From: Candidatus Zixiibacteriota bacterium
GTDB lineage: Bacteria; Zixibacteria; MSB-5A5; GN15; FEB-12
Direction: 5' to 3'
Length of the DNA: 45,442 nucleotides
NCBI GenBank assembly: GCA_049324195.1
Contig: JBMOKZ010000379.1
Coordinates: forward strand, 1-45,442
The stretch's first letter is position 1. Each line of letters opens with the position of its first letter. Shown here in pieces: positions 1 through 27,869 of this stretch. Under the pieces are notes generated by a model. It was not told the DNA's origin. It worked only from the letters and a program-made list of their open reading frames with translations, and ran no database searches. The translations under genes and the position numbers were made by a program.

Positions 1-165
1 AACTTTATATACTTTAGAGGTTTATACAAAAAGGAGGTAGTTTATAGCACTACGGTTAATGTTTTTTTGTTTTTAATTTAGTTACATAAAAGGTGTTGAT
101 TTAATCGGCCTTTATAACCGTTGCTTAAACTACTGGTTATGGGCCGGGTCAGAGGCCCGGTACAT

Positions 166-6767: not shown

Positions 6768-9700
6768 TTGCATAGGATGCAGTTTCTGGAGAAGATACTA
6801 TTAGTTTTAATAATATTCACCGGGCTGTCGCTGACAGCCCGGGCTGCTGATGACATCATAATCGGTAAAAAAGTCCCGGCGGAAAAAACCGTTACGGCTA
6901 ATCCTGTCCGCGGATTCGACATTAGCCCCTATCCCAACGAACGTCTTAATATCTCGTCGATGAAAAAAGGTGACAAGGTCTGGGCTCTGCCGTCCCGCGC
7001 GCTGGCCGCCGATTTCGATTCCACTATCAACGTCCTGGTTCTGCGCGTTCAGTTTCAGGAAGAAGTCGAGGATGACCCCAACACCACCGGCAACGGCATT
7101 ATGAACGTCACCCACCCCAAGGAGAACGTGAACGATTCCCTTGCCTATTTCGATTCGGTCGGCCACTGGGTCGATCCCCCGCCGCACGATTCGCTATATT
7201 TCGACGCCCATATGCGGTCGCTCAACCGCTACTGGGAAACCGTCTCCGATTCCGGCCTTCAATTGACCTGGAACATTTTTCCTTCGGGGGCCAATTCCGT
7301 TTATCAACTGCCACATGAGATGAGCTATTACGGCAAGTGCAGCTACGATTCTGTGGTGCTGGGACTTCAGAATTTCTTTATTGACTGCATTGAACTGGCC
7401 GATGAAGATCCTGATATCGCTTTCGCGGATTATCAGGCTATTATCATTTTCCACGCCGGCGCCGACCGTCAGAACGATCTCGGTTATCCGCTCACCTGTT
7501 GTGACCTCTTTACCGGTTATATCCGCTTTATCGATACCGCGCTGGTGGTCGATGATGGCGCCGCTGAGGTCAACTCGGCGGTCATGATGCCCGAGTATTC
7601 CAGTCAGGACAACCGGGCGGTGGCTATCAACGCCGTGATGGCGCACGAGTTTGGTCATCAACTGGGTTTGATTGACCTGTACAACACCTACTCCGCGGCG
7701 CTGATGTCCTGTCTGGGTGATTTTGCTTTGATGGACAATAACGGTTTCAACACCGGTCTGGAGATGCCCGAATGGTTCTCCAAGCCCTGGATCGGGACCG
7801 TCTTTGGCGCCATGCCCATTTACCCCTGCGCCTGGTCGCGGGCTTATCTCGGCTTTGATGAGGTGGTTGATTACAGGCAGGGTTCGGATATTCGGCTGGT
7901 GGCCGCCGAGGCTGCCCGGGAAGGCGTTAAAATCGCCCGTATCCCCATCTCCGAGATGGAGTACTATCTTATCGAGGTCCGGACCGACGATATGGACGGT
8001 ATCGAGGAAGTCGGGGTCAAATGGGACGCCGACGGTACCGGTATTTTCCTCTGGCCCAAAAACGAATATGTCGATTTCAACCGGGAGTACGATGCTCTCA
8101 TCCCCGGTGCGGGGATGCTGATATATCATGTCGATGAATCCGTGGCCTGGATGAATTTCGACGCCTCCGAATACGATACGCTCAATAATTTCGATGACAA
8201 CGACCTGCAATGGGACCGCGAACGTCGGTTTGTCAAGCTGGTCGAGGCCGACGGTATCGAGAATTTCCACGGCTATTATTCGGGCGGCTACGGCGAGGAG
8301 GACGATATGTTCCGAGAGGACAACAACGGTTCGTTTACGCCCAATACCAACCCGCCCGCCATCGATAATTCCGGCAACAACACGCATATTTATATCGAAA
8401 ACATCTCCCGTCTGGATACGCTTTTTCCCGGAGAATCGGTAATTTCGACCCTCGACACCATCATGACTTTCGACCTCGAAACCAGGGGACTGGTGCAGAA
8501 TTTCCCGGTCCGGGTCGGTCCTTACGGTTACAGCGTGATCGCCGATGACCTGAACTATGACGGAAAAACCGAAATAATTACTGCCTGCGGCAACCTGCTG
8601 GCGGTATTCACCGCCGACGGTCATAATTTCCTGATGGAGCAACACGGGTTCGACAGCGGTCATGTCTATTATGACGACGCCGCGGCAATAATCAATCCGG
8701 GGGAATCGTTCGAACCGGACAGCACCGATATTGTCATCCATCTGAATCCCCAGCCCGTACCGCTTTACGTGCGCACCTCAGAAATCATGTCCTGCGCGCC
8801 CGTAACCGGGCAGTTCGATACGACGATGCTGCTCGATAAATACGTCGCGATCGGTTTTCCGACTTCTATCAGCATGGGCGTAGTTTTGTTTTATACGACC
8901 GATGACAACAATCTGGACGGCCGGTCAGACGCCGTCAACGCCATCGGGGCGCCGCTGCCGACCAGAGGATACCCGATTGCCCTTTCGTTCGGAAGTAAAC
9001 TATATGCCCTGACCGATTCCGGGTACGTCTATTTCAAGGAGGCTTTGACGGCTCCCGCGCTGGCATACCCATATTTTAAAAACGAGGAATACTTCGGCAT
9101 CTGCCGTATCAGCGAAAACCGTCTGCTGCTTATGGCGGGGGACACCCTGGGTGACGATAACGAACAAACCAGAATTTACTATATGGGGGGTACGGCCGAG
9201 ACCGTGGATTCGCTGGTGCTCGACGGTTATTACAAATACGGCCCGGTGCTGGTGGATGTCGATAAAGACTACCAGCCGGAAATCGTCGCTTGCACCCCCG
9301 ACGGCGATATCGTTTACGTGACGGTGGACACGACCAGCGTCATGCCCTCGTTCAGTATTCTCGCGCACCGCAAGACCGGTTATCGTTTGACGACCAACCC
9401 GGCAGTGGGCGATGTCGACCTCAACGGCTACCCGGATATAATTATCGGCGGGCAGAACGCCGTGTATGCTTTCAATCAGGACCTGACCCTCAAAACCGGC
9501 TTCCCGATCGAAGTCAATGACCGTTACCCCGACGATATCGTCGCCGCCGCGCCGATCACGACGGACCTTCGGTCCGGAGGCGTCCCGGAAATAATCTTCC
9601 CGACGGAAGTGGGTAATATCAACTCGTTCGGTCCTGACAAAACCTATGGTTTCCCGCTTTCAGCGGGGGAATACGGGCTGGGGTCGTGTGTTTATTTCGT

Positions 9701-10178
9701 CGATTCCTCCTCGGGCGATTCCATAGTCGGACGGCTCGGGTATATCGGCGCCGACGGCTGGTTCTATGCCTGGTCGGTGGACCCGGACACGGCGCATAAT
9801 TACTGGCCCATGATAGGTCGTGACCCCGAAGGCTCGTTCCGGTTTATCAACGACCAGCTCCAGCCGGCGACGCCTACAGCCGGTTTGCTTCCGGAGGAGC
9901 GGTTTTACAATTATCCCAACCCGGTACTGGACGGCGCTACCACCATCACCTACTGGCTTAATGATACTCCGGAGAATATTGCTCTGACGATTTATGATTT
10001 GTCCGGACGTGAGGTAAAAAGTTTCCGCATGGACGAACTCGGCCGGCGCGTTCAGGAAGAAAACGAAGTGGTCTGGAACTGCGGTAACGTCACTCCGGGG
10101 GTGTATCGGTGCCTGATAAAAGTCGATTTCTCCGGAAGCACCGAAACGTCCTTTACCGATATTGCCGTAATAAGATAA
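6768..10178 (+). CDS. Secreted M6-family (immune inhibitor A-like) zinc metalloprotease with FG-GAP/VCBS-like repeats and a T9SS CTD
   Basis: The HExxH site sits in AVMAHEFGHQLGLIDLY. M6-type blocks are present: MEYYLIEVR, GAGMLIYHVDES, VKLVEADG. FG-GAP-like repeats are DLNYDGKTEIITA, DVDKDYQPEIVA, GDVDLNGYPDIIIGG and DLRSGGVPEIIF. SD GGAGG (6756-6760) lies 7 nt before TTG 6768; ATG 6777 is an alternative start. A signal peptide ends in ...LTARAADD. Confidence 0.75.
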   Translation: MHRMQFLEKILLVLIIFTGLSLTARAADDIIIGKKVPAEKTVTANPVRGFDISPYPNERLNISSMKKGDKVWALPSRALAADFDSTINVLVLRVQFQEEVEDDPNTTGNGIMNVTHPKENVNDSLAYFDSVGHWVDPPPHDSLYFDAHMRSLNRYWETVSDSGLQLTWNIFPSGANSVYQLPHEMSYYGKCSYDSVVLGLQNFFIDCIELADEDPDIAFADYQAIIIFHAGADRQNDLGYPLTCCDLFTGYIRFIDTALVVDDGAAEVNSAVMMPEYSSQDNRAVAINAVMAHEFGHQLGLIDLYNTYSAALMSCLGDFALMDNNGFNTGLEMPEWFSKPWIGTVFGAMPIYPCAWSRAYLGFDEVVDYRQGSDIRLVAAEAAREGVKIARIPISEMEYYLIEVRTDDMDGIEEVGVKWDADGTGIFLWPKNEYVDFNREYDALIPGAGMLIYHVDESVAWMNFDASEYDTLNNFDDNDLQWDRERRFVKLVEADGIENFHGYYSGGYGEEDDMFREDNNGSFTPNTNPPAIDNSGNNTHIYIENISRLDTLFPGESVISTLDTIMTFDLETRGLVQNFPVRVGPYGYSVIADDLNYDGKTEIITACGNLLAVFTADGHNFLMEQHGFDSGHVYYDDAAAIINPGESFEPDSTDIVIHLNPQPVPLYVRTSEIMSCAPVTGQFDTTMLLDKYVAIGFPTSISMGVVLFYTTDDNNLDGRSDAVNAIGAPLPTRGYPIALSFGSKLYALTDSGYVYFKEALTAPALAYPYFKNEEYFGICRISENRLLLMAGDTLGDDNEQTRIYYMGGTAETVDSLVLDGYYKYGPVLVDVDKDYQPEIVACTPDGDIVYVTVDTTSVMPSFSILAHRKTGYRLTTNPAVGDVDLNGYPDIIIGGQNAVYAFNQDLTLKTGFPIEVNDRYPDDIVAAAPITTDLRSGGVPEIIFPTEVGNINSFGPDKTYGFPLSAGEYGLGSCVYFVDSSSGDSIVGRLGYIGADGWFYAWSVDPDTAHNYWPMIGRDPEGSFRFINDQLQPATPTAGLLPEERFYNYPNPVLDGATTITYWLNDTPENIALTIYDLSGREVKSFRMDELGRRVQEENEVVWNCGNVTPGVYRCLIKVDFSGSTETSFTDIAVIR
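9900..10175 (+). other. T9SS C-terminal sorting domain (CTD) of the M6 protease
   Basis: FYNYPNPVLDGATTITYWLNDTPENIALTIYDLSGREVKSF...VVWNCGNVTPGVYRCLIKVDF...TDIAVIR has the same NYPNP...GVY pattern as the CTD at 3730-4047. Boundaries are approximate. Confidence 0.6.
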
Positions 10179-10196: not shown

Positions 10197-11126
10197 ATGG
10201 CTTTTGGGAAAATTATTGTAACGACTGTTTTGTCGATATTGGCTATTGCCGTGGCGGTACCAGCCTTCGAACTGCCAACGTCAGTTTTCGACCGGGAAAA
10301 ACAGGCGCTTAAGTACAGCTACACCAATCTTGGTTTGAACGCCCCGTTCGCTGACGAGTTCGACGATACCGATAATCCCGAAGCTGTCAAACTCGAAGAG
10401 AAAACATCGAAACCGGGTCATAAATCACCCGGGCGAGCGTTTGTTTATTCTCTCGTTCTGCCGGGACTGGGTCAGTACTATTACGGCAGCAAGGTCAAGG
10501 CCGCCTTTTTTCTCGGGACGGAAATCACCGCCTGGACGCTGTGTCTTATATGGCATGCCGACGGTGTTGACCTGACCGACGATTTCGAGGCTTTCAACCG
10601 GGAACACTGGATTGAAGACAGGTACGTTGATTATCTCCAAATGGCATATGGAGAGGAATATACTGATGATGAGGATATCCCCGTCAGCGAGAATGAGGGG
10701 ATTATCCACAATTTGCCCGATACCCGCACCCAGCAATATTACGAGATGACCGGAAAGTACGACCAGTTCGCCTGGGGCTGGGAGGACGCTGTGCTCGATG
10801 GTGACTCTCTTTATGATTTTGATGCCGGGAATCCGCCGCCGAAAATTTATGAAGAAGGCACCACACCGTATTCGGCGCTGCGTTTTGTTTACGAGGATAT
10901 GCGCGAAGACGCCAATAATAAATTCGATAATTCCAAAAAGATGGTCATGGTCGCCATTTTAAACCGCCTGATAAGCGGCTTCGAGGCGTACTTCATGACC
11001 AAACACCGTAACAGTCAGGCGGGGAACGACAACTCGTTTTTTAGCCGGGTCGATTTCGACGCCCGCTTGAAATCGTGTTATGCCGTTAACGATACGCCGT
11101 TTCTTAAGATGACGGTTAAATTTTAA
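10197..11126 (+). CDS. Hypothetical envelope protein, paralogue A of a tandem pair
   Basis: ATG follows AGGAA. The N-terminus is hydrophobic (MAFGKIIVTTVLSILAIAVAVPA). The motif YSLVLPGLGQYYYGSKVKAAFFLGTEITAW is shared with the next ORF. The C-terminus FLKMTVKF ends in Phe, like an OMP beta-signal. I recognise no family with confidence (possibly DUF5683-like). Confidence 0.55.
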   Translation: MAFGKIIVTTVLSILAIAVAVPAFELPTSVFDREKQALKYSYTNLGLNAPFADEFDDTDNPEAVKLEEKTSKPGHKSPGRAFVYSLVLPGLGQYYYGSKVKAAFFLGTEITAWTLCLIWHADGVDLTDDFEAFNREHWIEDRYVDYLQMAYGEEYTDDEDIPVSENEGIIHNLPDTRTQQYYEMTGKYDQFAWGWEDAVLDGDSLYDFDAGNPPPKIYEEGTTPYSALRFVYEDMREDANNKFDNSKKMVMVAILNRLISGFEAYFMTKHRNSQAGNDNSFFSRVDFDARLKSCYAVNDTPFLKMTVKF

Positions 11127-11140
11127 ATCAGGTTGGACCA

Positions 11141-11947
11141 ATGAGGAAACTAATACCGAGTATTATTTTCGTTTTTATTCTCTGTGTCGGTACCGCCGCC
11201 ACGGCGGTGGAGCTTAAATCCACGCCCGTGCAAAACGCTATGGAAATCCAGCTGGCGCTGGCCAGCCGGGGCGATGAATTCGACCAGCTAAACCGGAAGA
11301 AAACCGATGATGTGACCGCCACCGAGAATAAAATCGAAACAGGGACCAACAGTCCCAAAGCGGTCTGGAAAGCCGGTTTGCTTTCCGCGCTGGTGCCCGG
11401 AGCTGGGGAGTTCTATCTCGGTAACAAGGCCAAAGCCCGGTATTTTTTCGCCGCCGAGGCTCTGACCTGGGTGGGTTTTATCGCTTTCCGGACATACGGC
11501 AGCTGGCGCAAAGATGACTATATCGAATACGCCGCCAAATACGCCGACGCCCATATCGGCGACAAAGACGATGAATTTCACGACCTGGTCGGGTTTTACT
11601 CCAGCATCTATGAATATAACACTCTCGGCCGGGTAGGTGACCCGGAACGGGCGTATCTCGAAGACACTCCGGAGAATCACTGGCTCTGGGACAGTCCCGA
11701 GGACCAGGCGACTTACCGGGCGCTCAAGACGAGCAGTAAGGATGCTTATAACCGGGCTAATTTCGCGCTCGGGGTGGCCGCCATCGCCAGAATTATTTCG
11801 GTAATTGACGCGGTGCGCGACGCCCGCAAACAAAACCAGCGCATCGATAAGGAATTTTCCCGGTCAGATAAGATTAATTATAAATTCAGCGTAAATCCGT
11901 TCAGCGAAACCGGACAGGTTAAATTTACCCTTTATGCTCCGTTTTAA
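11141..11947 (+). CDS. Hypothetical envelope protein, paralogue B of a tandem pair
   Basis: Signal peptide MRKLIPSIIFVFILCVGTAATA. The shared motif is LSALVPGAGEFYLGNKAKARYFFAAEALTW. A second shared block is ARIISVIDAV, versus NRLISGFEAY in paralogue A. The C-terminus QVKFTLYAPF ends in Phe. Confidence 0.55.
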   Translation: MRKLIPSIIFVFILCVGTAATAVELKSTPVQNAMEIQLALASRGDEFDQLNRKKTDDVTATENKIETGTNSPKAVWKAGLLSALVPGAGEFYLGNKAKARYFFAAEALTWVGFIAFRTYGSWRKDDYIEYAAKYADAHIGDKDDEFHDLVGFYSSIYEYNTLGRVGDPERAYLEDTPENHWLWDSPEDQATYRALKTSSKDAYNRANFALGVAAIARIISVIDAVRDARKQNQRIDKEFSRSDKINYKFSVNPFSETGQVKFTLYAPF

Positions 11948-11950
11948 AAT

Positions 11951-12913
11951 ATGGCTTTTAAAAAGCTTGTTCTGTTATTGACGGCCGGATGGCTATTAAT
12001 TACGGCCTGTTCCAAACCTCCATCGGATATCCAGGAAAACGCCCCTGTCGCCGTACCGCTTGCCATGCTCGTCGAGAGGGAAATATCCGGGACGGTTCTG
12101 GGTCAGTCCCTGAAAACGCCGATGGGAATAACGGTCGATTATCAGGGACAATTATATGTCTGCGACGCCGGTAATAACCGGCTGCTTCGCTTCGATGAAA
12201 AGTTTATGCCGCAAAGAGAGTACGGCGGTTACGGGAGCCTCGAGGGCCTGTTCAATCATCCCGGATATATTGTTATCGATAACGGGCTGAATCTCTGGGT
12301 CGCCGATGTCGGCAACCGGCGGTTGAGCCGTCACAACCGGGAATTGAATTTCGTCGACGAAATCAAGCTCGTCGATTATGACGAACCGCTCAAGTACGGC
12401 GAACCCTCGGGTATCGCTCTGACGCCCTACGGCGAAATCTGGATGTGTGACCGGGAAAAAGGCCGCCTCGCTATCTTCGATAATGTCGGCCAGTTCGACC
12501 GTTTTATCGGCGAATTCGGATATTCCGGCGGGCAGCTTCTGCAACCGGAAAAAATCATTTCCGATAGCCATGATAATTTCATCGTCTGTGACGCCGGTAA
12601 CCGCCGGATTGCGGTGTATGACCGCTATGGCAATTTTTCTTACGACCTCAGAAATAATGTTTTCGATTATCCGGTGGCGGCGGCGGCGGGGAACGATGGT
12701 AACCTGTGGGTGGTGGATAAAACCGCGGGGCGGGTGTATCTGGTCAGCCGACGCGGGGAAATCCTGTTCGAAACCGGTCCTTCGATTCCCGGGGTGAACA
12801 CCCCTCTCAAGAACCCGTCGGATATTATCGTCCTCAAAGACGGCCGGTTGATAATCTCCGACAGCGGTAATAACCGTCTGCTGGTATGTCAGGTCATGTT
12901 AGATAAACAGTAG
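11951..12913 (+). CDS. NHL-repeat beta-propeller lipoprotein
   Basis: Lipobox LLITAC follows the signal peptide. NHL-type blades repeat: CDAGNNRLLRFD, VADVGNRRLSRHN, MCDREKGRLAIFD, VCDAGNRRIAVYD, VVDKTAGRVYLVS, ISDSGNNRLLVC. The gap to the preceding gene is 3 nt. Confidence 0.75.
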   Translation: MAFKKLVLLLTAGWLLITACSKPPSDIQENAPVAVPLAMLVEREISGTVLGQSLKTPMGITVDYQGQLYVCDAGNNRLLRFDEKFMPQREYGGYGSLEGLFNHPGYIVIDNGLNLWVADVGNRRLSRHNRELNFVDEIKLVDYDEPLKYGEPSGIALTPYGEIWMCDREKGRLAIFDNVGQFDRFIGEFGYSGGQLLQPEKIISDSHDNFIVCDAGNRRIAVYDRYGNFSYDLRNNVFDYPVAAAAGNDGNLWVVDKTAGRVYLVSRRGEILFETGPSIPGVNTPLKNPSDIIVLKDGRLIISDSGNNRLLVCQVMLDKQ

Positions 12914-12923
12914 CCGTGCGGTT

Positions 12924-15900
12924 ATGCCGGGGTATTTCAGGAAAATATCATCCTACATCTTAATCGCTTCCGTAATGTGCGTGTCCGTTGCGGTGGCTGG
13001 AGCCAGAATCCAGCTGGTCGGAAACAATATTCCCAAAAACCTGACTGTGGGCAGCCGTTATATTTTCGCTGGTTCCGACACGCTTTATTTGAACGACCGG
13101 CTGCTGACGTGCGAAGTCGATTACCGTTTCCTGTCCGGGTACGGGTATTTCGATCTGTCGGCGCTGAATTTTTCAGCGAATGATACTCTGACCGTCGTTT
13201 ACACCCCTTTGCCGATCTGGCTTCAGAAGACTTACGGTCGGGCGCTGGAGCCGCTCGCCGCGTCGGCGAGCCGGGCAGTCAAACTTCCTGAGACAATCGA
13301 GGCGGTCGAGCGGATGCAACGTTCTCAAATCGATATTTCCGGAGCCAAATCATTTCGTTTTTCCGCCCGTTCAGCGGGCGCTTCGGAGTTCAGCCAGTCG
13401 CTTGATTTGAATATCGCCGGAGAACTGTCCCCGGGATTGGAAATATCCGGTTCCATTTCAGACCGGGGTTATGACCCCGCCTATGGTACGGCTAACAGCC
13501 GTCTCAATGAAATCGAGAAGATAAATATCCGTTTGAATTCCCGGAGGCTGACCGCCCAGGTAGGGGATATCCGGGTCAAAGCCGTGTCGTCCGATATTGT
13601 CGAAAAAAACGTGTCCGGAGCTTCATTCACACTATCATATCCCGCCTGGGGCGTGCGGGGAATGGTTGCCAGGCCGAAAGGGCTTTTCAGAACTTACAAA
13701 TTTTACGGTCAGGACGGTTTCCAGGGACCTTACCAGATCGGGGAGGGAAGTTCCATTTCACCGGTTGTGCCCGGCTCGGAAACTGTCTGGCTGGACGGCT
13801 CGCAACTGGAACGGGGAGCCAACAAGGATTACACCGTCGATTACGTGACCGGCCGAATTACGTTCAACGTCACCCGGCTTATTGATAGTCGCAGCCGGCT
13901 CGAAGTCGATTACGAGCCGCAGGCGACCGACTACAAGGGCGAGCTGTACGCCGCCAGCGCCGGGACAAAGATGAAGGATTCGCTCTTTTTCCTGACGGTC
14001 GATATCCTGCGCGAAGGGGACGATAAAAACCAGCCGCTTACCGGCGCGCTCTCGGAAAGCGATAAAAATTTGTTAAATGCGGGCGGCGACAGTTCCGTCT
14101 ACCGCTCGGGCGTAACGGCCGATACCTCGGGCAGTTTTATTCTGGTCGCCGACAGCCTGCCCGATTCTATATATCGTTTTGTCGGGGAAGGCAACGGGGA
14201 GTACGACGCGACCTTCAGCTATGTCGGCGACAATGCCGGTGGCTACCGTTTTCTCGGGAACGGTAATTACGAATATGTCGGCGACGGCGCCGGCGATTAC
14301 CGGCCGGTGGTGCTCGTACCCGCCCCGGTGCGAACGGATTATTTTCAGCTGACCACCGGCAGCCGCAGCGCTTTGCTCGGAACGCTTTCCGCCGATATCC
14401 GCACGACCAGCCATGATAAAAATCTTTTTTCGTCCCGTGATGACGGCGATAATACCGCCTGGTATTACGCACTCGGTGCGGCGCGGGACTGGTTCTGGCG
14501 CGACCGCATCAATCGCGTTGAGCTCAACCGGCGTGTGGTCGAAGCTGACTATAAGGTTCGGCAGCGGTTGAACCGGGCGGATTTCAGCCGGGATTTTCTG
14601 TTGCCGGTGAATTATGTCGTGCACGACGACGAAACATTGAACGAAATCAATGGTACGGTCAGCCCTTTACGGCAGTTCACTCTGACATCCTTTTATTCGA
14701 ATCTTGAATATGGAAGCAGTTTTTCAGCCCGCACTGGCGGCGTCAGCGCTGAACTTTATCCGTTGGAAAAACTGACCCTGTCCGGCGGCTGGCGGGGAAT
14801 TGCCTCCGACTATGAGGAGTCTCCGGGCAGCGGTCAGGGTTCGGCGGATAACGTCCAAACCACTCTCGACTACCTTTTCGACGAGCGGTTGCGACTTAAG
14901 ACCGGATTCGAATACGACGACCGCGTCAATGTCTATACGGCTCAAAAGCGGGGTACGCGCTATAACCGGGCCTGGCTCGAACTGGCCGGGAACGGGGTAA
15001 ATGTCCGCTATGAATATTACAACGAGGATACCCTGATGCAGGCGTGGACGGAAACGCTCGAACGCAACCGGGTGACCTCGGCTTTTAACCATCAGCTCGG
15101 CGACCTGGACTACGACCTGACGCTGTCGTATCAATGGCTCAACCAGCCACAGGTCGAAGAGACAAATTTCCTCGGGAGAATGAACCTGCGTTATTACCGT
15201 CCGCAGAACAAACTGCGTCTGGCGAGTTCGTACACCATCTCCGAAGAACTTCGCAACGAGCGGGGGCTGACTTATCTCGAAGTCGGGGAGGGTCTGGGGA
15301 ACTATATCCTCGAAGACGGCGAATATATCAGCGATCCCGACGGGAACTATATCCAGGTTGAGGAAATCCTGTCGGACAACGCCCGGGTGCGGCGGGGACA
15401 GAAAACTTTCGATGTCAGCAAGGATTGGCGGGTGGTGATGGTACGGTTCAATTCCGAGATTGAGGAGGAATTGCTTGACAGCGGCCGGCGTGCGGTATGG
15501 TGGGCGCTTCCGTTTTACAGCGACGAAAACGAACCGTATCTCTATTTTGACCGGCGATACGATGTTGATTTAAGAGCTGTTCCTCTGGGCGGTTTTCACG
15601 CCATCAACATCCATCTCTACGAAAAAACCGAAATAAGGTTCATCAGCGGCGCCTCAAGGAAACTTCGGGACACCCAAATCGAACTTGCGTTCAAACAGAA
15701 GTTACATGAAAGTTATTTCGTGGAAGCCCTGGAGCTGTTCAAGACCGCCCGCGACAGTTATTACAGCGGCGCGGGGAATATCAAGGGTTATAAAATAAAT
15801 CTGACATACCGGCTGCAGACCGCTTTCGGGGAACTAAGCGCGGGCGGCTCGTATCGCCGGGCAGACTCTGACGAGGATGAACGTTCGCGGATAATTTCGC

Positions 15901-16169
15901 TTTTAACCGGCAGCCGCCTTAAAATCGCGACTCGGGGAGAGATCCGAACGGAGCACGAACTTTACCGGCAGGAATTCGATAACCTCACCGGTTCCCCGTC
16001 CTACAAGCTAACCGGCAATAAACCCGGCGAGAAGGGCGCAGAATGGAAGCTCAGTTTTAACTATGGGGTCAGTGGCGGCCTGAGAATAAATCTGTCGGTG
16101 TCGGGTCGTCACGCCGACAACCGCACCGCTCGTATTACCGGTCGAGGGGAGGTGGTCGCCGGGTTTTAG
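12924..16169 (+). CDS. Large (1081 aa) uncharacterised secreted protein, probable outer-membrane beta-barrel
   Basis: Signal-like N-terminus MPGYFRKISSYILIASVMCVSVAVAGA. The sequence is rich in Y/R/G/D/N with many short alternating strands (LDYDLTLSYQWL, LRLASSYTISE, YKINLTYRLQ, WKLSFNYGVSGGLRINLSVSG). It ends in GEVVAGF, an aromatic terminal residue typical of OMPs. I recognise no family with confidence. Confidence 0.55.
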   Translation: MPGYFRKISSYILIASVMCVSVAVAGARIQLVGNNIPKNLTVGSRYIFAGSDTLYLNDRLLTCEVDYRFLSGYGYFDLSALNFSANDTLTVVYTPLPIWLQKTYGRALEPLAASASRAVKLPETIEAVERMQRSQIDISGAKSFRFSARSAGASEFSQSLDLNIAGELSPGLEISGSISDRGYDPAYGTANSRLNEIEKINIRLNSRRLTAQVGDIRVKAVSSDIVEKNVSGASFTLSYPAWGVRGMVARPKGLFRTYKFYGQDGFQGPYQIGEGSSISPVVPGSETVWLDGSQLERGANKDYTVDYVTGRITFNVTRLIDSRSRLEVDYEPQATDYKGELYAASAGTKMKDSLFFLTVDILREGDDKNQPLTGALSESDKNLLNAGGDSSVYRSGVTADTSGSFILVADSLPDSIYRFVGEGNGEYDATFSYVGDNAGGYRFLGNGNYEYVGDGAGDYRPVVLVPAPVRTDYFQLTTGSRSALLGTLSADIRTTSHDKNLFSSRDDGDNTAWYYALGAARDWFWRDRINRVELNRRVVEADYKVRQRLNRADFSRDFLLPVNYVVHDDETLNEINGTVSPLRQFTLTSFYSNLEYGSSFSARTGGVSAELYPLEKLTLSGGWRGIASDYEESPGSGQGSADNVQTTLDYLFDERLRLKTGFEYDDRVNVYTAQKRGTRYNRAWLELAGNGVNVRYEYYNEDTLMQAWTETLERNRVTSAFNHQLGDLDYDLTLSYQWLNQPQVEETNFLGRMNLRYYRPQNKLRLASSYTISEELRNERGLTYLEVGEGLGNYILEDGEYISDPDGNYIQVEEILSDNARVRRGQKTFDVSKDWRVVMVRFNSEIEEELLDSGRRAVWWALPFYSDENEPYLYFDRRYDVDLRAVPLGGFHAINIHLYEKTEIRFISGASRKLRDTQIELAFKQKLHESYFVEALELFKTARDSYYSGAGNIKGYKINLTYRLQTAFGELSAGGSYRRADSDEDERSRIISLLTGSRLKIATRGEIRTEHELYRQEFDNLTGSPSYKLTGNKPGEKGAEWKLSFNYGVSGGLRINLSVSGRHADNRTARITGRGEVVAGF

Positions 16170-16174
16170 GCGTT

Positions 16175-17815
16175 ATGAAAATGCTTTTACTTGTCATATT
16201 CCTTCTGGTCTGCTGGCCGGCATCAGTTTGCGCCGATGAGGTAAAATTTGTGGGCGAGCCGCCTCACGACGGAAAGATGCTGGGAAACGGTATAAATTTT
16301 CTGCTGCGGCAGGGACTTGATATTGAGGCAATCAGCGATTCCGTGCTCGGATGGTTATCCCGAGACGGTTATCTTGACGCCGGGATAGATATCGATTCTA
16401 ACCGGATTTCCATTACAGCCGGGCGGCGGTTTATTCTGGATAAGCTGGTGGTGGCTGGTGATTCGACGGTGGTTTATCCTAACGGGGACGTTTTCATCGA
16501 GGAGAATATCGACCGTGCCGTGCAGGCGGTGCTCGAGAAATATTATGACCGGGGTTTCTATTATACCCGGGCCAATATTATTTCGGTAAAACGCGAGGAA
16601 AACCGCGTCACGCTGGAACTGGAACTGTTGAAGGGTCCGCTCGTGACGGTCGGGAAAAATATCCTGCGCGGATTGACCCGAACCAGGCCGGACATTGTCC
16701 GTAAGTATTTACCTATCCGCGATGGCGACACTTTGACCGGGGAAACTGTCCGCCGGGCTGAGAACGCTGCGGCCGCCGTACCCTTTGTCGATTTCCGACC
16801 GCCTGTGACCGTACGGGCCGAATCCGGATTCAATCAGGCCGATCTTGTATTCGATTTCGTCGAGAAAAGACAATTCGCTTTTAACGGCGGCGCCGGGTAT
16901 ATCCCCGACGACCCTTCGGGCCTGGTCTGGAATATGGACTTGACCCTGAGCAATCTTTTCGGTGACGGTCGCCGCCTGCGCGTATATTCAGAACGGAAAA
17001 AAAAGGGCCGCAATATCCTCGATTTGTCGTATTCACAGCCGGTTTTCCTGCTGGGGCTGGGGGAGGCCGATTTCAAGGTCGCTACTCGCGATTATCGCGA
17101 CCAGTTTTATGAGTTCGCGCTCGATGGCGCCTATCGCACGGCCTTGAAACCGGGATTTATCACCGGTCTGTCGCTCAGCTGGAAAAGAGTCGAGCCGTCG
17201 ACCATTAACCCGGCTTATTCCCGTTTCACCGCAGGTTTTCTTTTAGAACGCCGGTCGCTTGACAGCGATTACAATCCTGCAAATGGTTACGTCGTCAACT
17301 GGACTATTGCGTTCGCGTATCGGAAGTATGATGAGGATACCCTGATGACGTGGGAAGCGGTATCATACAACGAAACCCGTACGGAGGTCGCCGCCGATTA
17401 TTACCGGAAACTGTTCGGTTCGCTGGTCTTCCATGTCGGAGTCAATTACCGGGGGCTGGAAACCGGCGAGGCTCTGCCGGCGCTGGCGGAACTTTATTTT
17501 GTTGGGGGACCGGGGACGATCCGCGGTTTCCGCAACGAACAATTCTCGGCCCGGCGCACGGCTTTCGGCACCCTGGAACCCCGATGGCGCTTCAGCAACG
17601 GTTATATGTTCCTGTTCTATGACGCCGCTTACCTGAACCGTCATCTCGCTGCCGGTGATGACCGGGTCGCTACCGAGGAGCTATATCGGTATGGTTATGG
17701 TTTCGGACTGGCCCTGAACGATTCGCAACGCTCGCTCAAAGTGGCGCTTGGCTGGAACCGGGATATGCCGCTCAACCAGCCGCGACTTTCGATCGAATTG
17801 TCATCCGACATTTAA
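16175..17815 (+). CDS. Omp85/BamA-TamA family outer-membrane protein (POTRA plus surface-antigen barrel)
   Basis: Signal peptide MKMLLLVIFLLVCWPASVCA. A POTRA-like region (ILRGLTRTRPDIVRKYLPIRDGDTL) is present. The barrel carries the loop-6 type motif YFVGGPGTIRGFRNEQF characteristic of Omp85 proteins. The gap to the upstream gene is 5 nt. Confidence 0.7.
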   Translation: MKMLLLVIFLLVCWPASVCADEVKFVGEPPHDGKMLGNGINFLLRQGLDIEAISDSVLGWLSRDGYLDAGIDIDSNRISITAGRRFILDKLVVAGDSTVVYPNGDVFIEENIDRAVQAVLEKYYDRGFYYTRANIISVKREENRVTLELELLKGPLVTVGKNILRGLTRTRPDIVRKYLPIRDGDTLTGETVRRAENAAAAVPFVDFRPPVTVRAESGFNQADLVFDFVEKRQFAFNGGAGYIPDDPSGLVWNMDLTLSNLFGDGRRLRVYSERKKKGRNILDLSYSQPVFLLGLGEADFKVATRDYRDQFYEFALDGAYRTALKPGFITGLSLSWKRVEPSTINPAYSRFTAGFLLERRSLDSDYNPANGYVVNWTIAFAYRKYDEDTLMTWEAVSYNETRTEVAADYYRKLFGSLVFHVGVNYRGLETGEALPALAELYFVGGPGTIRGFRNEQFSARRTAFGTLEPRWRFSNGYMFLFYDAAYLNRHLAAGDDRVATEELYRYGYGFGLALNDSQRSLKVALGWNRDMPLNQPRLSIELSSDI

Positions 17816-17852
17816 TTGTTGACTCCGACGGTCCGGACTTCTATTGTCCGGT

Positions 17853-18698
17853 ATGGACAAATTGCTGGAAACCTTGAAACTGATAAGAGTAGTCAACTGT
17901 CTGCTGGCTATGGCCGGAGTATATATCGGCGCTTATATGACCTGGACCGTTCCGGTTTATTACGGACCGGTAATGACGGCGATAGCGGCCTTTTTTGTCT
18001 GCGCGGTAGGTAATATCGTCAACGATATCGCCGACATTGAAATCGACCGTATCAACCGTCCCCGGCGGGTCCTGGTGAAAGGGACTCTTTCGCGCTCACG
18101 CGCTGTCAAAACCGCCATAATTTTCGCCCTGACGGCGCTGGTCGCGGCGCTCGCAGTCAATACCGCCTTATTGATTGCGGTGACGGCGGCTCTCGGGCTT
18201 CTTTTGCTCTATAATTTCTATTTGAAAAAGATTCCGGTGGTCGGCAACATTGTCGTTGCTTTGTTATCGGCGCTAACGTTCCTGACGGGCGGGTTGGCGG
18301 TAAATTACCGATGGCTCTTCGAACTTCCCGGACCGCTGGTGCCGGCCGTGTTCGCATTCTTTTTTCACCTGGTGCGGGAAATTTTAAAAGATGTCGAGGA
18401 TATCGACGGCGACCTGCAGGCCGGCGTTAAAACTCTTCCGCAGATAATCGGTGTTTCCAAAAGCCTGTTGACGATTATCGTTCTCTTTTTTGTGCTCGTG
18501 CTCGCCACTTATGTTCCCATTTTGACCGGCTGGTTTGGACGGGCTTATGAAATCCTGGTCGTTTACATAGTCGATTTACCGCTGTTGCTGTTGTTGATTT
18601 TTGTCTGGGGCAATCCCAGCGCCAGGATGCTACGGGTCGGGTCGTATGCGCTGAAGGCGGGGATGGTGCTTGGCCTGGCAGCGTTGATAACAGCTTAA
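17853..18698 (+). CDS. UbiA-family prenyltransferase, resembling (di)geranylgeranylglyceryl-phosphate synthase-type enzymes
   Basis: Polytopic membrane protein with the two Asp-rich UbiA motifs, NIVNDIADIEIDRINRPRR and LKDVEDIDGD. The track start is TTG 17844; ATG 17853 is preferred. Confidence 0.7.
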   Translation: MDKLLETLKLIRVVNCLLAMAGVYIGAYMTWTVPVYYGPVMTAIAAFFVCAVGNIVNDIADIEIDRINRPRRVLVKGTLSRSRAVKTAIIFALTALVAALAVNTALLIAVTAALGLLLLYNFYLKKIPVVGNIVVALLSALTFLTGGLAVNYRWLFELPGPLVPAVFAFFFHLVREILKDVEDIDGDLQAGVKTLPQIIGVSKSLLTIIVLFFVLVLATYVPILTGWFGRAYEILVVYIVDLPLLLLLIFVWGNPSARMLRVGSYALKAGMVLGLAALITA

Positions 18699-19695: not shown

Positions 19696-20060
19696 CCGTT
19701 GAGGTCAAGCCGGTTCGGGCGGGTCTTTATAAATCACCTTCGTTTTGATATCATAAGTGTCGGGTTATCCACAACGAAAAATGAAAAAATCGTTATAAGC
19801 CGAATCGATATTACGGGTTGCGGCAAAATGGGTTTGTTTTGTTATTTTCGGGGTCTCTTTATTTTTTTGGTCGTTTCACTCGCAAAATCCCTACGTTGTC
19901 GGTAGCGCTGTTTTGTATATGATCCTGCATATTCTTAGCCTTTTTAAATGAGGGGGAGGAGATAGTATTTTGATGTGGATTGGTGGGGGAAGTGGGGGGG
20001 CTTGATATTATGCATTAATAGTATTGCTAAGCCTATATACCTCAAAAATAAGAAAAGAGA

Positions 20061-20089
20061 TTGCACTTGGGCCAGAAAGTCGATATATT
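20061..20089 (+). promoter_or_regulatory. Sigma70-like promoter of the AT-rich cassette
   Basis: TTGCAC (20061-20066), a 17-nt spacer, then TATATT (20084-20089), 36 nt upstream of ATG 20125. Confidence 0.4.
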
Positions 20090-20124
20090 ATCCATAACAA
20101 TCACTTGGGGAGTTATGTTTTAAT

Positions 20125-20949
20125 ATGACAACTTTATTAGGTGAACCAAAAGAAAAATGGTTTGAAAAGTATAAAGGATATCTACGACCAGATAATCTTC
20201 TTAAGATTGGCGGTGTATTTACGGCGATAATATATGTGATTGGTTATATTGTTGTAACACTAAATCTTTCAAAATACGGGGTTTCAACTTTTGAAATCCT
20301 TAGGCTGCAATATCTAATGGCTGGTTTTTGGTATGTTTATCCTTTTTTTATTACGCTAGTCATGTGCTATATAATAATACCTGGTATTAAATATCTGGAT
20401 TATGTTTGGAAAGAAATAAGTAATTTTATTAAATGGTTAGTGATTTTACTGATATTATTTCTTTTAGTTGCGATAGGAAGCGCATATGGATTTGTAATGG
20501 AAGGTATTAATTTTCAGGCGCACTTGCATTTATATATAATGCCTTTTTGTTTTATGATTGTGATTGTTATAACTGGTAGAATTAAGAAGTTTTTCCTTCC
20601 CCGTAAAAGAAATATTCTGATAGAAGATAATGTTATGAAATGGTTACTTGTTGCATCTTTATTTATAATACCAATATCATATTTAGTCTTTTTTGCTGAT
20701 CAAATATATCCAAATATTCCAAGTAATATTGGGGGTGGGAAATTAATCAATGTGAGTATAACAACAACTAAGAATTTAAATTTAGAAAATATAGCAATTC
20801 AAAGGGAAGATAAATCATTTATTGTAAATTGTAAACTTTTACTTGAAACAAGTGATAGAATAATATTATTACCCTATGACTCTTCAAATACGGCAATCTC
20901 TATTAACAAAGAATGTATAGCTACGATGGTGCTTAATCCAGAGGATTAA
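20125..20949 (+). CDS. Hypothetical polytopic membrane protein (about 5 TM helices plus an ~80-aa soluble C-terminal domain)
   Basis: 274-aa ORF in the AT-rich segment. Hydrophobic stretches include GGVFTAIIYVIGYIVVTL, MAGFWYVYPFFITLVMCYIII, WLVILLILFLLVAIGSAYGFV, LYIMPFCFMIVIVITG and WLLVASLFIIPISYLVFF. The C-terminus is non-hydrophobic. No family recognised. Confidence 0.55.
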   Translation: MTTLLGEPKEKWFEKYKGYLRPDNLLKIGGVFTAIIYVIGYIVVTLNLSKYGVSTFEILRLQYLMAGFWYVYPFFITLVMCYIIIPGIKYLDYVWKEISNFIKWLVILLILFLLVAIGSAYGFVMEGINFQAHLHLYIMPFCFMIVIVITGRIKKFFLPRKRNILIEDNVMKWLLVASLFIIPISYLVFFADQIYPNIPSNIGGGKLINVSITTTKNLNLENIAIQREDKSFIVNCKLLLETSDRIILLPYDSSNTAISINKECIATMVLNPED

Positions 20950-21019
20950 ATAAAAGGTGGCAAAAGAATACAGGTAATATTTAGATGAATCGGGCGACCA
21001 TACTTATAAAAATCTGGAT

Positions 21020-21748
21020 ATGACGGAGAGAAGATATTTAGGCTTAGTTGGGATTATCGTTAATAAAGAGTCTTATGATACAAGTTTCAGGCCAAACCTT
21101 AATGAGTTAAAGCGTAAACATTTTTATTATGATCCTGATAGACCGATAATATTACATCGTAATGATATCATTTATAAAAAAGGACCTTTCTGGAGGTTTA
21201 GAAGCCAGGAATTTAAAGATGTCTTTAACCAAAATATTTTAGAATTCCTAAAAACAGAAAATTATTTAATTATCAGTGTCGTAATCGATAAGAAGAACCA
21301 TATAGAACGCTATGGTGATTTTGCCTTTCATCCATATCATTACTGTTTAACTGCAATTATGGAAAGATATTGTGGCTGGTTAAATTATTTTAATAAGAAG
21401 GGTGACATTATTGCAGAATCAAGAGGGAACAGAGAAGATAATTTATTAAACGATGCTTTTTTAGAGGTGTTTAAAAACGGAACTCAATTCAGGGACTCCA
21501 ATTTTTTTACGAAATCATTAATCGCCGATAATATACATTTCGCTAAAAAGGATAGTAACAGTGCCGGCTTACAAATTGCCGATTTATTAGCTTATCCGAC
21601 AAAACAAGAAATCTTAATTGATAACAATGTCATAGATAAAACAAGTTATGGTTTTAATGATTCTATAAGAAAAGTAATTAAGGATAAGTATAATAGGAAT
21701 TTATTTACAAATAAGATTGTTGGTTATGGAAAAGTTTTTATAAAATGA
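21020..21748 (+). CDS. DUF3800-like protein (N-terminus apparently disrupted; possible pseudogene)
   Basis: NSAGLQIADLLAYP resembles the conserved LQxAD block of DUF3800. The family-typical DESG motif (YLDESGD) is encoded in frame at 20978-20998, upstream of the first ATG and right after an in-frame TAA (20975-20977). Confidence 0.5.
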   Translation: MTERRYLGLVGIIVNKESYDTSFRPNLNELKRKHFYYDPDRPIILHRNDIIYKKGPFWRFRSQEFKDVFNQNILEFLKTENYLIISVVIDKKNHIERYGDFAFHPYHYCLTAIMERYCGWLNYFNKKGDIIAESRGNREDNLLNDAFLEVFKNGTQFRDSNFFTKSLIADNIHFAKKDSNSAGLQIADLLAYPTKQEILIDNNVIDKTSYGFNDSIRKVIKDKYNRNLFTNKIVGYGKVFIK

Positions 21749-22071
21749 AAAGCCCCGCCATAGGCGGAGCCCTTCACGCTGGCCCTACACGAGCCATCCT
21801 TATTTATTAATAATATCGGTTTTTTACATTTTTTGTCAACTTTTTTTCTTCTGTTCATATCATATATACCTATATGTAATACAAATAATAAATCTGGAAA
21901 GTTTCAATATTATAGACCTCTAAAAAATTTTGAAACCAAAACGGTACAATTCAGTATAATTCAAAAAGCTTAAGTGCGGTAACAACTTAAACTTGACATT
22001 AGGCTTACAGTTTATACCTTGCGATGTTTGGAGCGATGTGACCCTTTTGATATTGGAAAGATAACGATAAA

Positions 22072-22932
22072 ATGCCTAAGTTGTTCGGCGTCCTGCTTTT
22101 AGTATTAGTTCTGGCAAACGGAGTTTTTGCCGACGGAATAAATCTCTCCCAGGCGGTCGATAGGACCGAAACGGCCTACGAAAGTACGGTCGATTTCGAG
22201 CTGACTCTTTCCTGGAAGGGTCCCCAGTCGGCCTATTATTTCCCCCAGCCTTTACAGCCGGTTTGCGACCGGATGAAAATACAGAAATTTTCCTCCACTA
22301 TCAGTTCCGCCGGGACCGGGGACGAGGAAATCACCACCAAAAAATATAAATTCACGCTCAAACCGACCGCGGCCGGGATGGCTTATATCCAGCCGGTTAC
22401 AATCAGCTACGTAACCTGGCCTGACAGCATCCCCGGCGAGCTGGTCAGCGAGCCGATGAGCGTGGTCGTGCACGACCCGGTGCCGGTGGTCGAAGAAGAG
22501 GGTCTTCCGATAACGACTATCGTTATAATAATTGTCGCGGTTATCGCGCTGGCGGGTATGGTTTCGGTTGCGCTGTTTTTGCACGCCAAAAAGAAACCCG
22601 CCGTGCCGGTGTCAACGCCGAAAACAAAATTTCTCGAGGCTCTGACCGGTGTGAAAAGCGAGGCTGGAAATAATTTGAAAAAATTTCAAACCGGGTTGTA
22701 TAAAATCCTGTTGACCTATCTTGAGGAGGAGTACCATCTCGAGCTGGCCGGGAAGCCCTCACAGGAAATCATTGAGGCCTTGAACAAGGTGTCGATGGAC
22801 GGTTCGCAGAAGGGTCAGATTTCCGGTTGGCTGATGCGGGCCGAGAAAGAGAAATACAGTCCGGTGGCCGGGGCGCCGGGGGAGACAATAAGATTGGAAA
22901 GCGAATTACGCGGTTTTTTCGAGAAAATATAG
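22072..22932 (+). CDS. BatD-like single-pass membrane protein (short paralogue)
   Basis: Signal peptide MPKLFGVLLLVLVLANGVFA. The ectodomain has the BatD-like pattern (LSQAVDRTETAYESTVDFELTLSW). It has one TM helix (ITTIVIIIVAVIALAGMVSVALFL) and a helical tail. The architecture matches the ORFs at 25755 and 29611. Confidence 0.5.
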   Translation: MPKLFGVLLLVLVLANGVFADGINLSQAVDRTETAYESTVDFELTLSWKGPQSAYYFPQPLQPVCDRMKIQKFSSTISSAGTGDEEITTKKYKFTLKPTAAGMAYIQPVTISYVTWPDSIPGELVSEPMSVVVHDPVPVVEEEGLPITTIVIIIVAVIALAGMVSVALFLHAKKKPAVPVSTPKTKFLEALTGVKSEAGNNLKKFQTGLYKILLTYLEEEYHLELAGKPSQEIIEALNKVSMDGSQKGQISGWLMRAEKEKYSPVAGAPGETIRLESELRGFFEKI

Positions 22933-22956
22933 AATGTAAAAATATACGGAGGTTTA

Positions 22957-23946
22957 ATGGATACCGACATCCAAAAAATACAGGCGGTCGTTGAAAAGGA
23001 ATCGTCGTTCGTGGAGCAGTTGACGGGCCAGATAAGCTCGGTCATTGTTGGTCAGAAATACCTGATCGAGCGGCTCCTGATAGGCATTCTCGGCAACGGC
23101 CATATATTAATAGAGGGGGTGCCGGGGCTGGCAAAGACGCTTTCGGTTAAAACGCTCTCGGACGCCATCCAGACGAAATTTCAGCGGATTCAGTTCACGC
23201 CGGACCTTCTGCCGGCGGACTTAATCGGGACGATGATATACAACCCGCAGAAAGCGGATTTCTCGGTCAAAAAGGGGCCGATTTTCGCCAATATTATTTT
23301 GGCTGACGAAATCAACCGCGCCCCCGCCAAAGTCCAGTCGGCGCTTCTGGAAGCCATGCAGGAACGGCAGGTGACGATCGGCGACAACACTTACCCGCTC
23401 GACGAGCCGTTTCTGGTGCTGGCCACACAGAACCCGATCGAGCAGGAAGGTACCTACCCGCTGCCCGAAGCCCAGGTGGACCGCTTCATGCTGAAGCTCA
23501 AAATCACTTATCCCGATCCCGCCGAGGAACGGGAAATCATGGACCGCAACGCCGAGACCGGATTCAACAAGGTCGCCAAGGTAGTCGCACCGCAGGATAT
23601 CGTTCGGGTGCGCGAGGTCATCAAATCGATATATGTCGATGAGAAAGTGAAAGAATATATCGTCAACGTGATATTCGCCACGCGCGAGCCGGAAAAGTAC
23701 GGTCTGGCGGAATTGAAGAGTTTAATTGCGTTCGGGGCGTCGCCGCGCGCCACGATTTATCTCAATATAGCCGCCAAGGCGCACGCCTTCCTGCGGGGCC
23801 GCGGTTATATCACGCCCGAGGATATCAAAGCCATTGGCGCCGATGTGCTCCGTCATCGGATTTTGCTGACGTACGAGGCCGAAGCCGAGGAAATGACGAC
23901 GGATGACATCGTCCGCCGGGTGTTCGATGCGGTCGAGGTGCCGTAA
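22957..23946 (+). CDS. moxR: MoxR-family AAA+ ATPase
   Basis: Walker A is in LIEGVPGLAKT and Walker B in IILADEINRA. Further MoxR-type blocks are LLEAMQERQVT, FLVLATQNP and GASPRA. RBS ACGGAGG lies upstream. Confidence 0.9.
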   Translation: MDTDIQKIQAVVEKESSFVEQLTGQISSVIVGQKYLIERLLIGILGNGHILIEGVPGLAKTLSVKTLSDAIQTKFQRIQFTPDLLPADLIGTMIYNPQKADFSVKKGPIFANIILADEINRAPAKVQSALLEAMQERQVTIGDNTYPLDEPFLVLATQNPIEQEGTYPLPEAQVDRFMLKLKITYPDPAEEREIMDRNAETGFNKVAKVVAPQDIVRVREVIKSIYVDEKVKEYIVNVIFATREPEKYGLAELKSLIAFGASPRATIYLNIAAKAHAFLRGRGYITPEDIKAIGADVLRHRILLTYEAEAEEMTTDDIVRRVFDAVEVP

Positions 23947-23958
23947 TAGAGAGCGTTT

Positions 23959-24834: not shown

Positions 24835-24843
24835 GGAAGTACC

Positions 24844-27853: not shown

Positions 27854-27869
27854 GAGGAATGATTAAGAT

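Follow-up and report, generated by a model that had tools for sequence, protein, structure and literature searches.

A predicted giant outer-membrane β-barrel with partial homology to SprA and a probable Omp85 partner, in Zixibacteria and other FCB bacteria

The closest described counterpart of the protein considered here is SprA, a 36-strand outer-membrane β-barrel that is the translocon of the T9SS (type IX secretion system), for which structures are available as PDB entries 6H3I, 6H3J, 8GL6 and 8GL8, and which opens laterally where PorV or Plug binds. Its known partners are PorV, Plug, PPI, SkpA and SprE. The window analysed here is a stretch of 45,442 nucleotides, contig JBMOKZ010000379.1 of assembly GCA_049324195.1, from a Candidatus Zixiibacteriota bacterium, and within it our concern is a gene at 12924-16169 on the + strand, the product of which, of 1081 amino acids, is called X. 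Its stop codon (16167-16169, within that span) is separated by 5 nt from the ATG at 16175 of a gene for an Omp85 paralogue, called Omp85x (16175-17815, + strand). X is predicted with good confidence, from structural models, to be a giant outer-membrane β-barrel, and profile comparison shows its first strands, first insert and following hairpin to be homologous to the N-terminal part of SprA/Sov. X is a member of a large and unnamed family of predicted giant outer-membrane β-barrels in the Fibrobacteres-Chlorobi-Bacteroidetes (FCB) superphylum.

One account (bioRxiv 10.64898/2026.03.07.710327) gives SprA, with its 36 strands, as the largest of the barrels known. Beyond it, Solan et al. (2021, PNAS, PMC8346858) used sequence and contact maps to predict a superfamily of single barrels with 38 or 40 strands; the text of that study gives no taxa, accessions or function for the superfamily, which may or may not be the X family, the agreement with X being one of strand number only. 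Full-text searches of the literature found no paper on a SprA paralogue, on the present module or on a T9SS in Zixibacteria. Two further systems bear comparison with the locus. As in TamA-TamB, a TamA-sized, POTRA-bearing Omp85 paralogue lies next to, and co-occurs with, a very large envelope protein, and insertion of X by Omp85x is plausible; the difference is that X is predicted to be a closed outer-membrane barrel with a C-terminal β-signal and not a periplasm-spanning protein. As in LptD-LptE, a large barrel would carry an N-terminal periplasmic domain, and the adjoining NHL-repeat lipoprotein could sit in or under the lumen of X, although LptD has 26 strands and the NHL partner of X is not lipidated in most other phyla.

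Predicted fold of X

An earlier note on the window, made from its letters alone, had read X as an orphan, mid-sized barrel that faintly recalls SprA, co-encoded with a PorV-like protein and a dedicated Omp85. The basic description holds throughout: the list of open reading frames, the translation and Pfam confirm the length of 1081 residues, the signal-like N-terminus (MPGYFRKISSYILIASVMCVSVAVAGA), the Omp85 gene 5 nt downstream and the C-terminal ...RGEVVAGF, which has the terminal Phe of outer-membrane proteins and resembles a β-signal. The composition is rich in L, G, S, R, A, D, E and Y. A Pfam scan of X gave no domain match at all, the Pfam and NCBIfam scans together gave none apart from the SprA model discussed below, and sequence searches of the PDB with X, by single sequence and by profile, found nothing, SprA included.

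Modelling of X with AlphaFold2 (AF2) on the family alignment gave a mean predicted local distance difference test score (pLDDT) of 84.1 and a predicted template-modelling score (pTM) of 0.71. Counted on the DSSP string of this model, backward from the C-terminal Phe, there are 38 long antiparallel strands between residues 135 and 1080. The 18 connections that share a side with the termini each have five residues or fewer, and every long connection lies opposite; this is the canonical pattern of outer-membrane proteins and fixes the strand parity. A second model, of a Melioribacteraceae homologue 26-30% identical to X, was built independently on an alignment of 71 locus-derived sequences (pLDDT 86.5, pTM 0.73) and agrees with the first in its 38 strands and in its inserts. 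The description 'mid-sized' does not, therefore, survive the strand count, since X is predicted to have at least as many strands as the 36 of SprA and is short through lacking most of SprA's extra-membrane mass. A Foldseek search of the PDB with the X model retrieved outer-membrane barrels exclusively (BtuB, PfeA, MtrB, LptD, SusC and SprA), which, with the two models, argues for an outer-membrane barrel and not for the soluble β-solenoid that had been considered as an alternative. The highest query TM-scores were those of SprA chains, at 0.22-0.26, values of which none discriminates among families. From geometry, the lumen is estimated to be some 7 nm wide.

The closure and the strand number of X rest on DSSP strings, such that the single closed barrel is a prediction, and mean-field covariation analysis (521 sequences, effective number 381), in which local hairpins were recovered, gave a weak signal for closure: the link of residues 145-160 with 1079-1081, that is, of the first hairpin with the last strand, is weakly positive and register-ambiguous, with 4 of the top 50 pairs. 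It could be supposed from this, and from the reading of closure off models, that one giant barrel is a product of the modelling alone, and that X really consists of two or more smaller barrels or of a non-membrane β structure. This we hold to be highly improbable, since concordant models were obtained for members of two different subfamilies, short turns alternate with long loops without a break over 38 strands, no long internal linker follows residue 135, and X has the C-terminal Phe, the signal peptide and the Omp85 partner of an outer-membrane protein. Moreover, AF2 is reported to reproduce the 36-strand barrel of SprA without templates (bioRxiv 10.1101/2022.10.09.511469).

Taking the single barrel as the working model, the chain would run from a signal peptide through a small periplasmic β domain and a flexible linker into one barrel of about 38 strands, all features lying on the + strand. 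The signal peptide (residues 1-26, 12924-13001) is modelled as a hydrophobic helix at residues 3-19 followed by AVAGA, the cleavage site being inferred. The N-terminal small β domain (residues 27-103, 13002-13232), with six short strands by DSSP, is predicted to be periplasmic, and the linker after it (residues 104-134, 13233-13325) is of low confidence, with pLDDT below 50 at residues 104-132. Strands 1-7 (residues 135-261, 13326-13706) include a conserved loop at residues 180-199 (SDRGYDPAYGTANSRL; 2.9 bits per column). Insert 1 (residues 262-336, 13707-13931), a small domain of SprA type, carries QGPYQ and the pattern GSExVWLDG..RG..DY..DY..GRITF, and is listed as the most conserved region, at 2.8 bits; the segment WLDGSQLERGANKDYTVDYVTGRITFNV is residues 289-316. 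Strands 8-9 follow (residues 337-371, 13932-14036), then insert 2 (residues 372-469, 14037-14330), modelled as an extra-membrane domain of one helix and eight short strands with G-x-G-DY repeats, at 2.4 bits. Strands 10-38 (residues 470-1081, 14331-16166), with pLDDT mostly above 90, contain two further conserved loops, 499-509 and 787-808, and end in ...GEVVAGF.

In these models both inserts and all three conserved loops are predicted to lie on the extracellular side. Across 93 family members, it is the predicted extracellular elements that are conserved most highly, at 2.7-2.9 bits per column, the most conserved parts being the two inserted domains and the three loops, which are spread over the first 14 strands with the addition of loop 787-808. 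The C-terminal barrel wall is at the low end, at about 1.5 bits per column, and the linker is the lowest of all, at 0.91 bits. Such a pattern, if the modelled topology is right, is the reverse of that of ordinary porins and would parallel that of a functional cap.

Relation to SprA and to other large barrels

Similarity to SprA is detected at several levels. The SprA model TIGR04189 matches residues 280-334 of X (E 1.3e-6, 25.9 bits, model positions 603-655 of 2319; the family cut-off is 200 bits), and it matches distant members of the X family at the same place. Reciprocally, the X-family profile matches the genome's own SprA with E 7e-9. In hhalign comparisons with SprA, made with 12-16 SprA sequences, probabilities of 94-97% and E-values down to 4e-11 to 5e-11 were obtained over 152-231 columns, the main ranges being X 206-366 or 279-586 against SprA 553-711 or 624-865; the alignment thus covers insert 1 and runs through the hairpin of strands 8-9. 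The N-terminal domain (X 30-102) matches SprA 609-683 with E 4e-12 and 97.6% probability, which is the same SprA segment as is matched by insert 1; therefore, X carries two copies of the small domain (13002-13232 and 13707-13931), as against one in SprA. Weaker, colinear matches pair X 130-264, that is, strands 1-7, with SprA 172-317 (E 9e-5, 60%) and X 487-501 with SprA 762-776 (E 0.01). By hhalign, insert 2 has no match in SprA and residues 590-1081 have no detectable similarity to it. The SprA resemblance that the earlier note remarked on is, accordingly, a real homology (hhalign 97%, E 4e-11), and one that is confined to the N-terminal part.

Two observations on labels may be recorded here. 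An NCBIfam phage tail-tube model gives a weak match to the small SprA-like domain segment in one family member (P0176), and one UniRef entry and one NCBI record of the family bear the label 'DUF2460 domain-containing'.

X is not, however, a SprA. It falls short of SprA membership in score (25.9 against 200 bits), in length and in the large extracellular cap, with extra-membrane inserts that total only about 250 residues, where SprA has more than 150 kDa outside the membrane on the extracellular side, most of which X lacks. At 1081 residues it is half as long as SprA (about 2000-2600), it is predicted to have 38 strands to SprA's 36, its C-terminal two thirds are not detectably similar, and its candidate partners, an Omp85 and an NHL protein, differ from those known for SprA. 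Furthermore, the genome (95.5% complete) encodes a full-length SprA elsewhere, split over contigs C384 and C202, at 209-224 bits per fragment, and the SprA reading frames of relatives are of 1950-2750 residues. The likeness, on the other hand, extends to the predicted giant single-chain outer-membrane barrel in an FCB bacterium, to the homologous N-terminal strands, hairpin and small domain (GSExV..G..L.RG.DY.I.Y..G.ITF), to conserved elements on the predicted extracellular side, as in the SprA cap, and to the genomic setting, with X beside porV and porU in Zixibacteria and, in the sample described below, only in genomes that bear SprA. Since homology is partial and the remainder is without signal, X is read as a remote, stripped-down SprA paralogue, the rest of its barrel having probably diverged beyond detection.

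This reading has difficulties of its own. The SprA homology takes in a third or less of X, at its N-terminal end, and the core of the match, the small domain, could be a mobile module. In addition, Foldseek gives 22-strand TonB-dependent receptors better E-values than it gives SprA.

Several other identities were considered for X and its neighbours. A housekeeping barrel is not what X appears to be: the genome's true BamA is encoded on contig C421 (427 bits), and its FCB-type LptD, with PF19838 (LptD_2) and OstA_2, on contigs C111 and C220, such that, SprA, BamA and LptD_2 all being encoded elsewhere, X is a fourth large barrel besides these; strong homology of X to a known housekeeping outer-membrane protein was not seen, the SprA match being partial. 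As an aside, the SprA and LptD_2 genes are each broken over two contigs, large outer-membrane protein genes being split by the fragmented assembly (421 contigs). LptD itself was rejected for want of any LptD or OstA Pfam match in X and because of the separate LptD_2. A TonB-dependent receptor was also rejected (no Pfam match; query TM-scores of just 0.13-0.17 for BtuB and PfeA by Foldseek), as was a protein of the AsmA/TamB (DUF490) type, of which there is no Pfam or NCBIfam match, the model being an antiparallel hairpin barrel; the proposal of a TamB-like substrate is not supported, X being a protein of the closed-barrel type by prediction. PorF (PG0534) was set aside from the literature, since in P. 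gingivalis it is a 92-kDa TonB-receptor-like protein (PMC5445135). Finally, replacement of SprA by X in some lineages is rejected for the sampled genomes, as every X-bearing genome has SprA and the two coexist.

Distribution and probable gene partners

X is far from the orphan that it had been taken for. In a word-indexed search, the full-length homologues, with about 1080 residues each, number more than 235, nearly all from metagenome-assembled genomes of Zixibacteria, all of them named 'hypothetical' and none with a Pfam domain. A profile built from 56 X homologues and searched against 1.84 billion representative proteins, clustered at 50% identity, matched 3170 clusters with the threshold set at E <= 1e-3, of which 1989 remain when it is tightened to E <= 1e-30. 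The clusters span Zixibacteria, Calditrichota, KSB1, Ignavibacteria, Balneolaceae, Chitinophagaceae and Flavobacterium, and they too carry the name 'hypothetical' and lack Pfam domains. With a profile of distant members, and one genome per species, at least 584 of the 600 pattern matches listed were confirmed, and among the matches listed the record titles name Calditrichota, KSB1, Zhuqueibacterota, Ignavibacteria/Melioribacteraceae, Chloroherpetonaceae/Thermochlorobacter and 'Bacteroidota'. The phyletic distribution reaches from Zixibacteria to Flavobacterium, and takes in cultured Flavobacterium, Psychroflexus, Chitinophagaceae and Balneolaceae, with Balneola, Gracilimonas, Panacibacter, Ginsengibacter and other Chitinophagaceae among the named carriers. 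The Flavobacterium homologue, of which the WP_160783116.1 family is an example, is a 1144-residue 'hypothetical protein' without a match in a Pfam scan, and F. anhuiense, F. ginsengisoli and F. crocinum are represented among the 170 members of its 90% cluster.

Within this range X goes together with SprA. In Zixibacteria, SprA is present in 81 of 81 genomes and X, in single copy, in 73 of the 81. In a second sample, of 121 genomes from a phylum of Bacteroidota type (that of a Melioribacteraceae genome), SprA was found in 96, X in 82 and Omp85x, at E <= 1e-45, in 73. All 82 X-bearing genomes have SprA and none of the 25 that lack SprA has X; likewise, all 73 genomes with Omp85x have X and none of the 39 that lack X has Omp85x. 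The three sets are, in other words, strictly nested in this sample. Against too strong a reading of these figures, 14 of the 96 SprA-bearing genomes, among them Flavihumibacter soli, are without X, from which it follows that the T9SS does not need X. The co-occurrence is, moreover, confounded by shared ancestry: the sampled genomes are related to one another, and the counts are suggestive only and not a statistical test.

The association with Omp85x is a particularly close one. Omp85x (546 residues, Pfam Omp85 and POTRA) is a non-BamA paralogue of the size of TamA. That it might be BamA was rejected, with BamA recognised by a score above the TIGR03303 cut-off and by five POTRA domains: the score of Omp85x is 84-90 bits against a cut-off of 297, its length is 546 residues and BamA is on C421. 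Where X is not linked to Omp85x, five such genomes each have exactly one strong Omp85x orthologue elsewhere, at 235-546 bits on an Omp85x profile on which their BamA proteins reach at most 114 bits; in the few kb inspected, no TamB gene lies beside the unlinked Omp85x. Flavobacterium-type genomes have a weaker candidate of 572 residues, at 110-130 bits as against 96-99 for BamA. This tight co-occurrence even when the genes are unlinked fits a dedicated Omp85 partner for X, as the earlier note had it, and most likely Omp85x would insert or hold the giant barrel.

The same facts can, however, be turned round, such that X and Omp85x together would be a device of outer-membrane biogenesis, folding or inserting the large and complex outer-membrane proteins of T9SS-bearing FCB bacteria, for example SprA, in the manner of TamA-TamB or of BamA with accessory subunits. 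The nesting of X and Omp85x within SprA-bearing genomes and their co-occurrence when unlinked suit such a device, as do the housekeeping neighbourhoods of both genes in Bacteroidota and the finding that FCB bacteria have extra BAM subunits, correlated with complex outer-membrane proteins (PMC12611786). Nevertheless, we consider it quite unlikely: 14 genomes with SprA have neither X nor Omp85x, so that neither is required for building SprA, a 38-strand barrel has no precedent among known assembly factors, and the conserved surfaces of X are predicted to be extracellular, whereas clients arrive from the periplasmic side.

Returning to X as a conduit or platform in its own right, the gene order in Zixibacteria places it among genes of protein sorting. 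X is the seventh gene of a co-directional string, all on the + strand, that comprises PorU, a PorV-family protein, an M6-like protein, two DUF5683-like proteins, the NHL protein, X, Omp85x and a UbiA-family prenyltransferase, and this order, followed by Bat/MoxR genes, is kept in Zixibacteria homologues at 35-38% identity. The string begins with the PorU sortase (121-4050; NF033707, 668 bits). The PorV-family gene (4068-6728; PorV_fam, 236 bits), which bears out the PorV-like co-encoding claimed earlier, specifies an enlarged protein of 886 residues. Immediately upstream of X, at 11951-12913 on the + strand, lies the conserved NHL partner (Pfam NHL 3e-28), a plain six-bladed propeller with PDB matches to the Pizza6, TRIM71 and PknD propellers, which has a lipobox (LITAC) in this genome and an ordinary signal peptide in other phyla. 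The trio of NHL, X and Omp85 occurs without PorU or PorV in Calditrichota, KSB1, Zhuqueibacterota and related loci, sometimes with UbiA next to it, and of 80 loci in other phyla 20 have NHL beside X. Identification of the NHL protein with the T9SS Plug found no support, the propeller being a plain NHL one.

Away from these lineages the picture is different, and this weighs against a tie to the T9SS: in Ignavibacteria, Balneolaceae, Chitinophagaceae and Flavobacterium, X lies alone among unrelated genes, which in Bacteroidota are housekeeping genes, unlinked to T9SS genes. The family is present in Flavobacterium, and to our knowledge the extensive screens for gliding and secretion made in that genus have never turned it up, which speaks against a core T9SS role, unless X is essential or redundant. 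X could then be an ordinary, if very large, channel or structural protein of the outer membrane, for example an uptake pore for large substrates, with no tie to the T9SS and with Omp85x as no more than an insertase of its own; the likeness to SprA would come down to a small domain that the two proteins share, and the co-occurrence to common FCB descent. The local extent of the detectable SprA similarity and the best Foldseek E-values, which are those of TonB-dependent transporters, would fit. We regard this as unlikely, if by no means negligible, since none of the 25 genomes of the same phylum that lack SprA keeps X, the module is joined to porU-porV in one operon in Zixibacteria, Pfam scans found no TonB-box, plug domain or transporter match in X, and the SprA similarity reaches colinearly into the barrel strands.

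The remaining neighbours may be dealt with briefly. In the PorV-family protein, the PorV/PorQ models match residues 31-68 and about 624-884 only, and the long insert between these ends has a weak propeller-type match. The M6-like protein (6768-10178, + strand) has a T9SS C-terminal domain, or sorting tail, and FG-GAP repeats, and matches the NCBIfam model for a T9SS-dependent M6-like inactivated metalloprotease (T9SSA_dep_M6i) over half of its length, at 258 bits, under the cut-off of 600. The two DUF5683-like genes (10197-11947, + strand; weak Pfam matches) are conserved in position between the sorting genes and the NHL-X-Omp85 trio. UbiA (17844-18698, + strand; Pfam UbiA 1e-34) comes after the Omp85 gene in Zixibacteria, as it does at several loci of other phyla (L019, L026 and L077), and may be part of the module; its best NCBIfam matches are models of geranylgeranylglycerol-phosphate geranylgeranyltransferase type, under their cut-offs. 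Between UbiA and the Bat genes, at 19800-22000, is a stretch of low G+C content (0.30 as against about 0.52) with a 274-residue open reading frame and a DUF3800 protein; since the syntenic Zixibacteria loci L005 and L006 lack this stretch, it is probably an insertion. At 22072-29600 the envelope string is followed by an operon of 'aerotolerance' type (BatD-like, MoxR AAA, DUF58/VWA, TPR and BatA/VWA), the position of which is kept in the same two distant Zixibacteria loci. Several complete or near-complete Zixibacteria genomes (G034, G006, G019 and G027) have SprA some 25-35 kb from X on the same contig, which suggests a wider T9SS neighbourhood. In one Melioribacteraceae locus (L069, 2626-9976) genes for an HlyD-type adaptor, an ABC ATPase and four MacB/FtsX-type permeases lie upstream of X, an adjacency that may be due to chance.

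Possible roles of the module

A functional tie of X to the T9SS is suggested by gene order and co-occurrence. On that basis, the reading that we tentatively favour, with a probability somewhat short of even, is that the package constitutes an SprA-related second conduit or platform beside the PorU/PorV sorting step, inserted or held in the membrane by its dedicated Omp85. In Zixibacteria the module would be co-transcribed with the PorU sortase and the PorV shuttle, which process and attach T9SS cargo, and its work would run in parallel with that of the T9SS. Material might then pass from the periplasm into the barrel of X and be handled at the conserved cap, with the periplasmic NHL propeller as a candidate plug or adaptor for a lumen of the estimated width. 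As to what is carried, it is speculation that this would be a subset of T9SS cargo or an anchor glycolipid.

A stronger form of this proposal may be put, and is one that we hold to be possible and rather less likely than not: that X is the largest single-chain β-barrel known, with 38 strands, and an overlooked second T9SS channel of SprA type, found from Zixibacteria to Flavobacterium, with an Omp85 protein and an NHL propeller of its own to build or gate it, and handling a step that SprA does not, such as the export of a subclass of cargo or the delivery of an anchor for PorU/PorV attachment.

Intensive study has been devoted to the T9SS of Bacteroidota and to the biogenesis of their outer membrane, and yet a family present in 82 of the 96 SprA-bearing genomes sampled, with the model genus Flavobacterium among its carriers, is annotated as no more than 'hypothetical'. 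If the prediction of 38 strands is true, X beats the 36-strand record of SprA, and raises the questions of how so wide a pore is sealed and how it is assembled. With regard to assembly, a private Omp85 that strictly co-occurs with it makes a natural system for the insertion of giant barrels. Orthologues are carried by cultured and genetically tractable Flavobacterium and Chitinophagaceae, such that the function of X is open to direct genetics.

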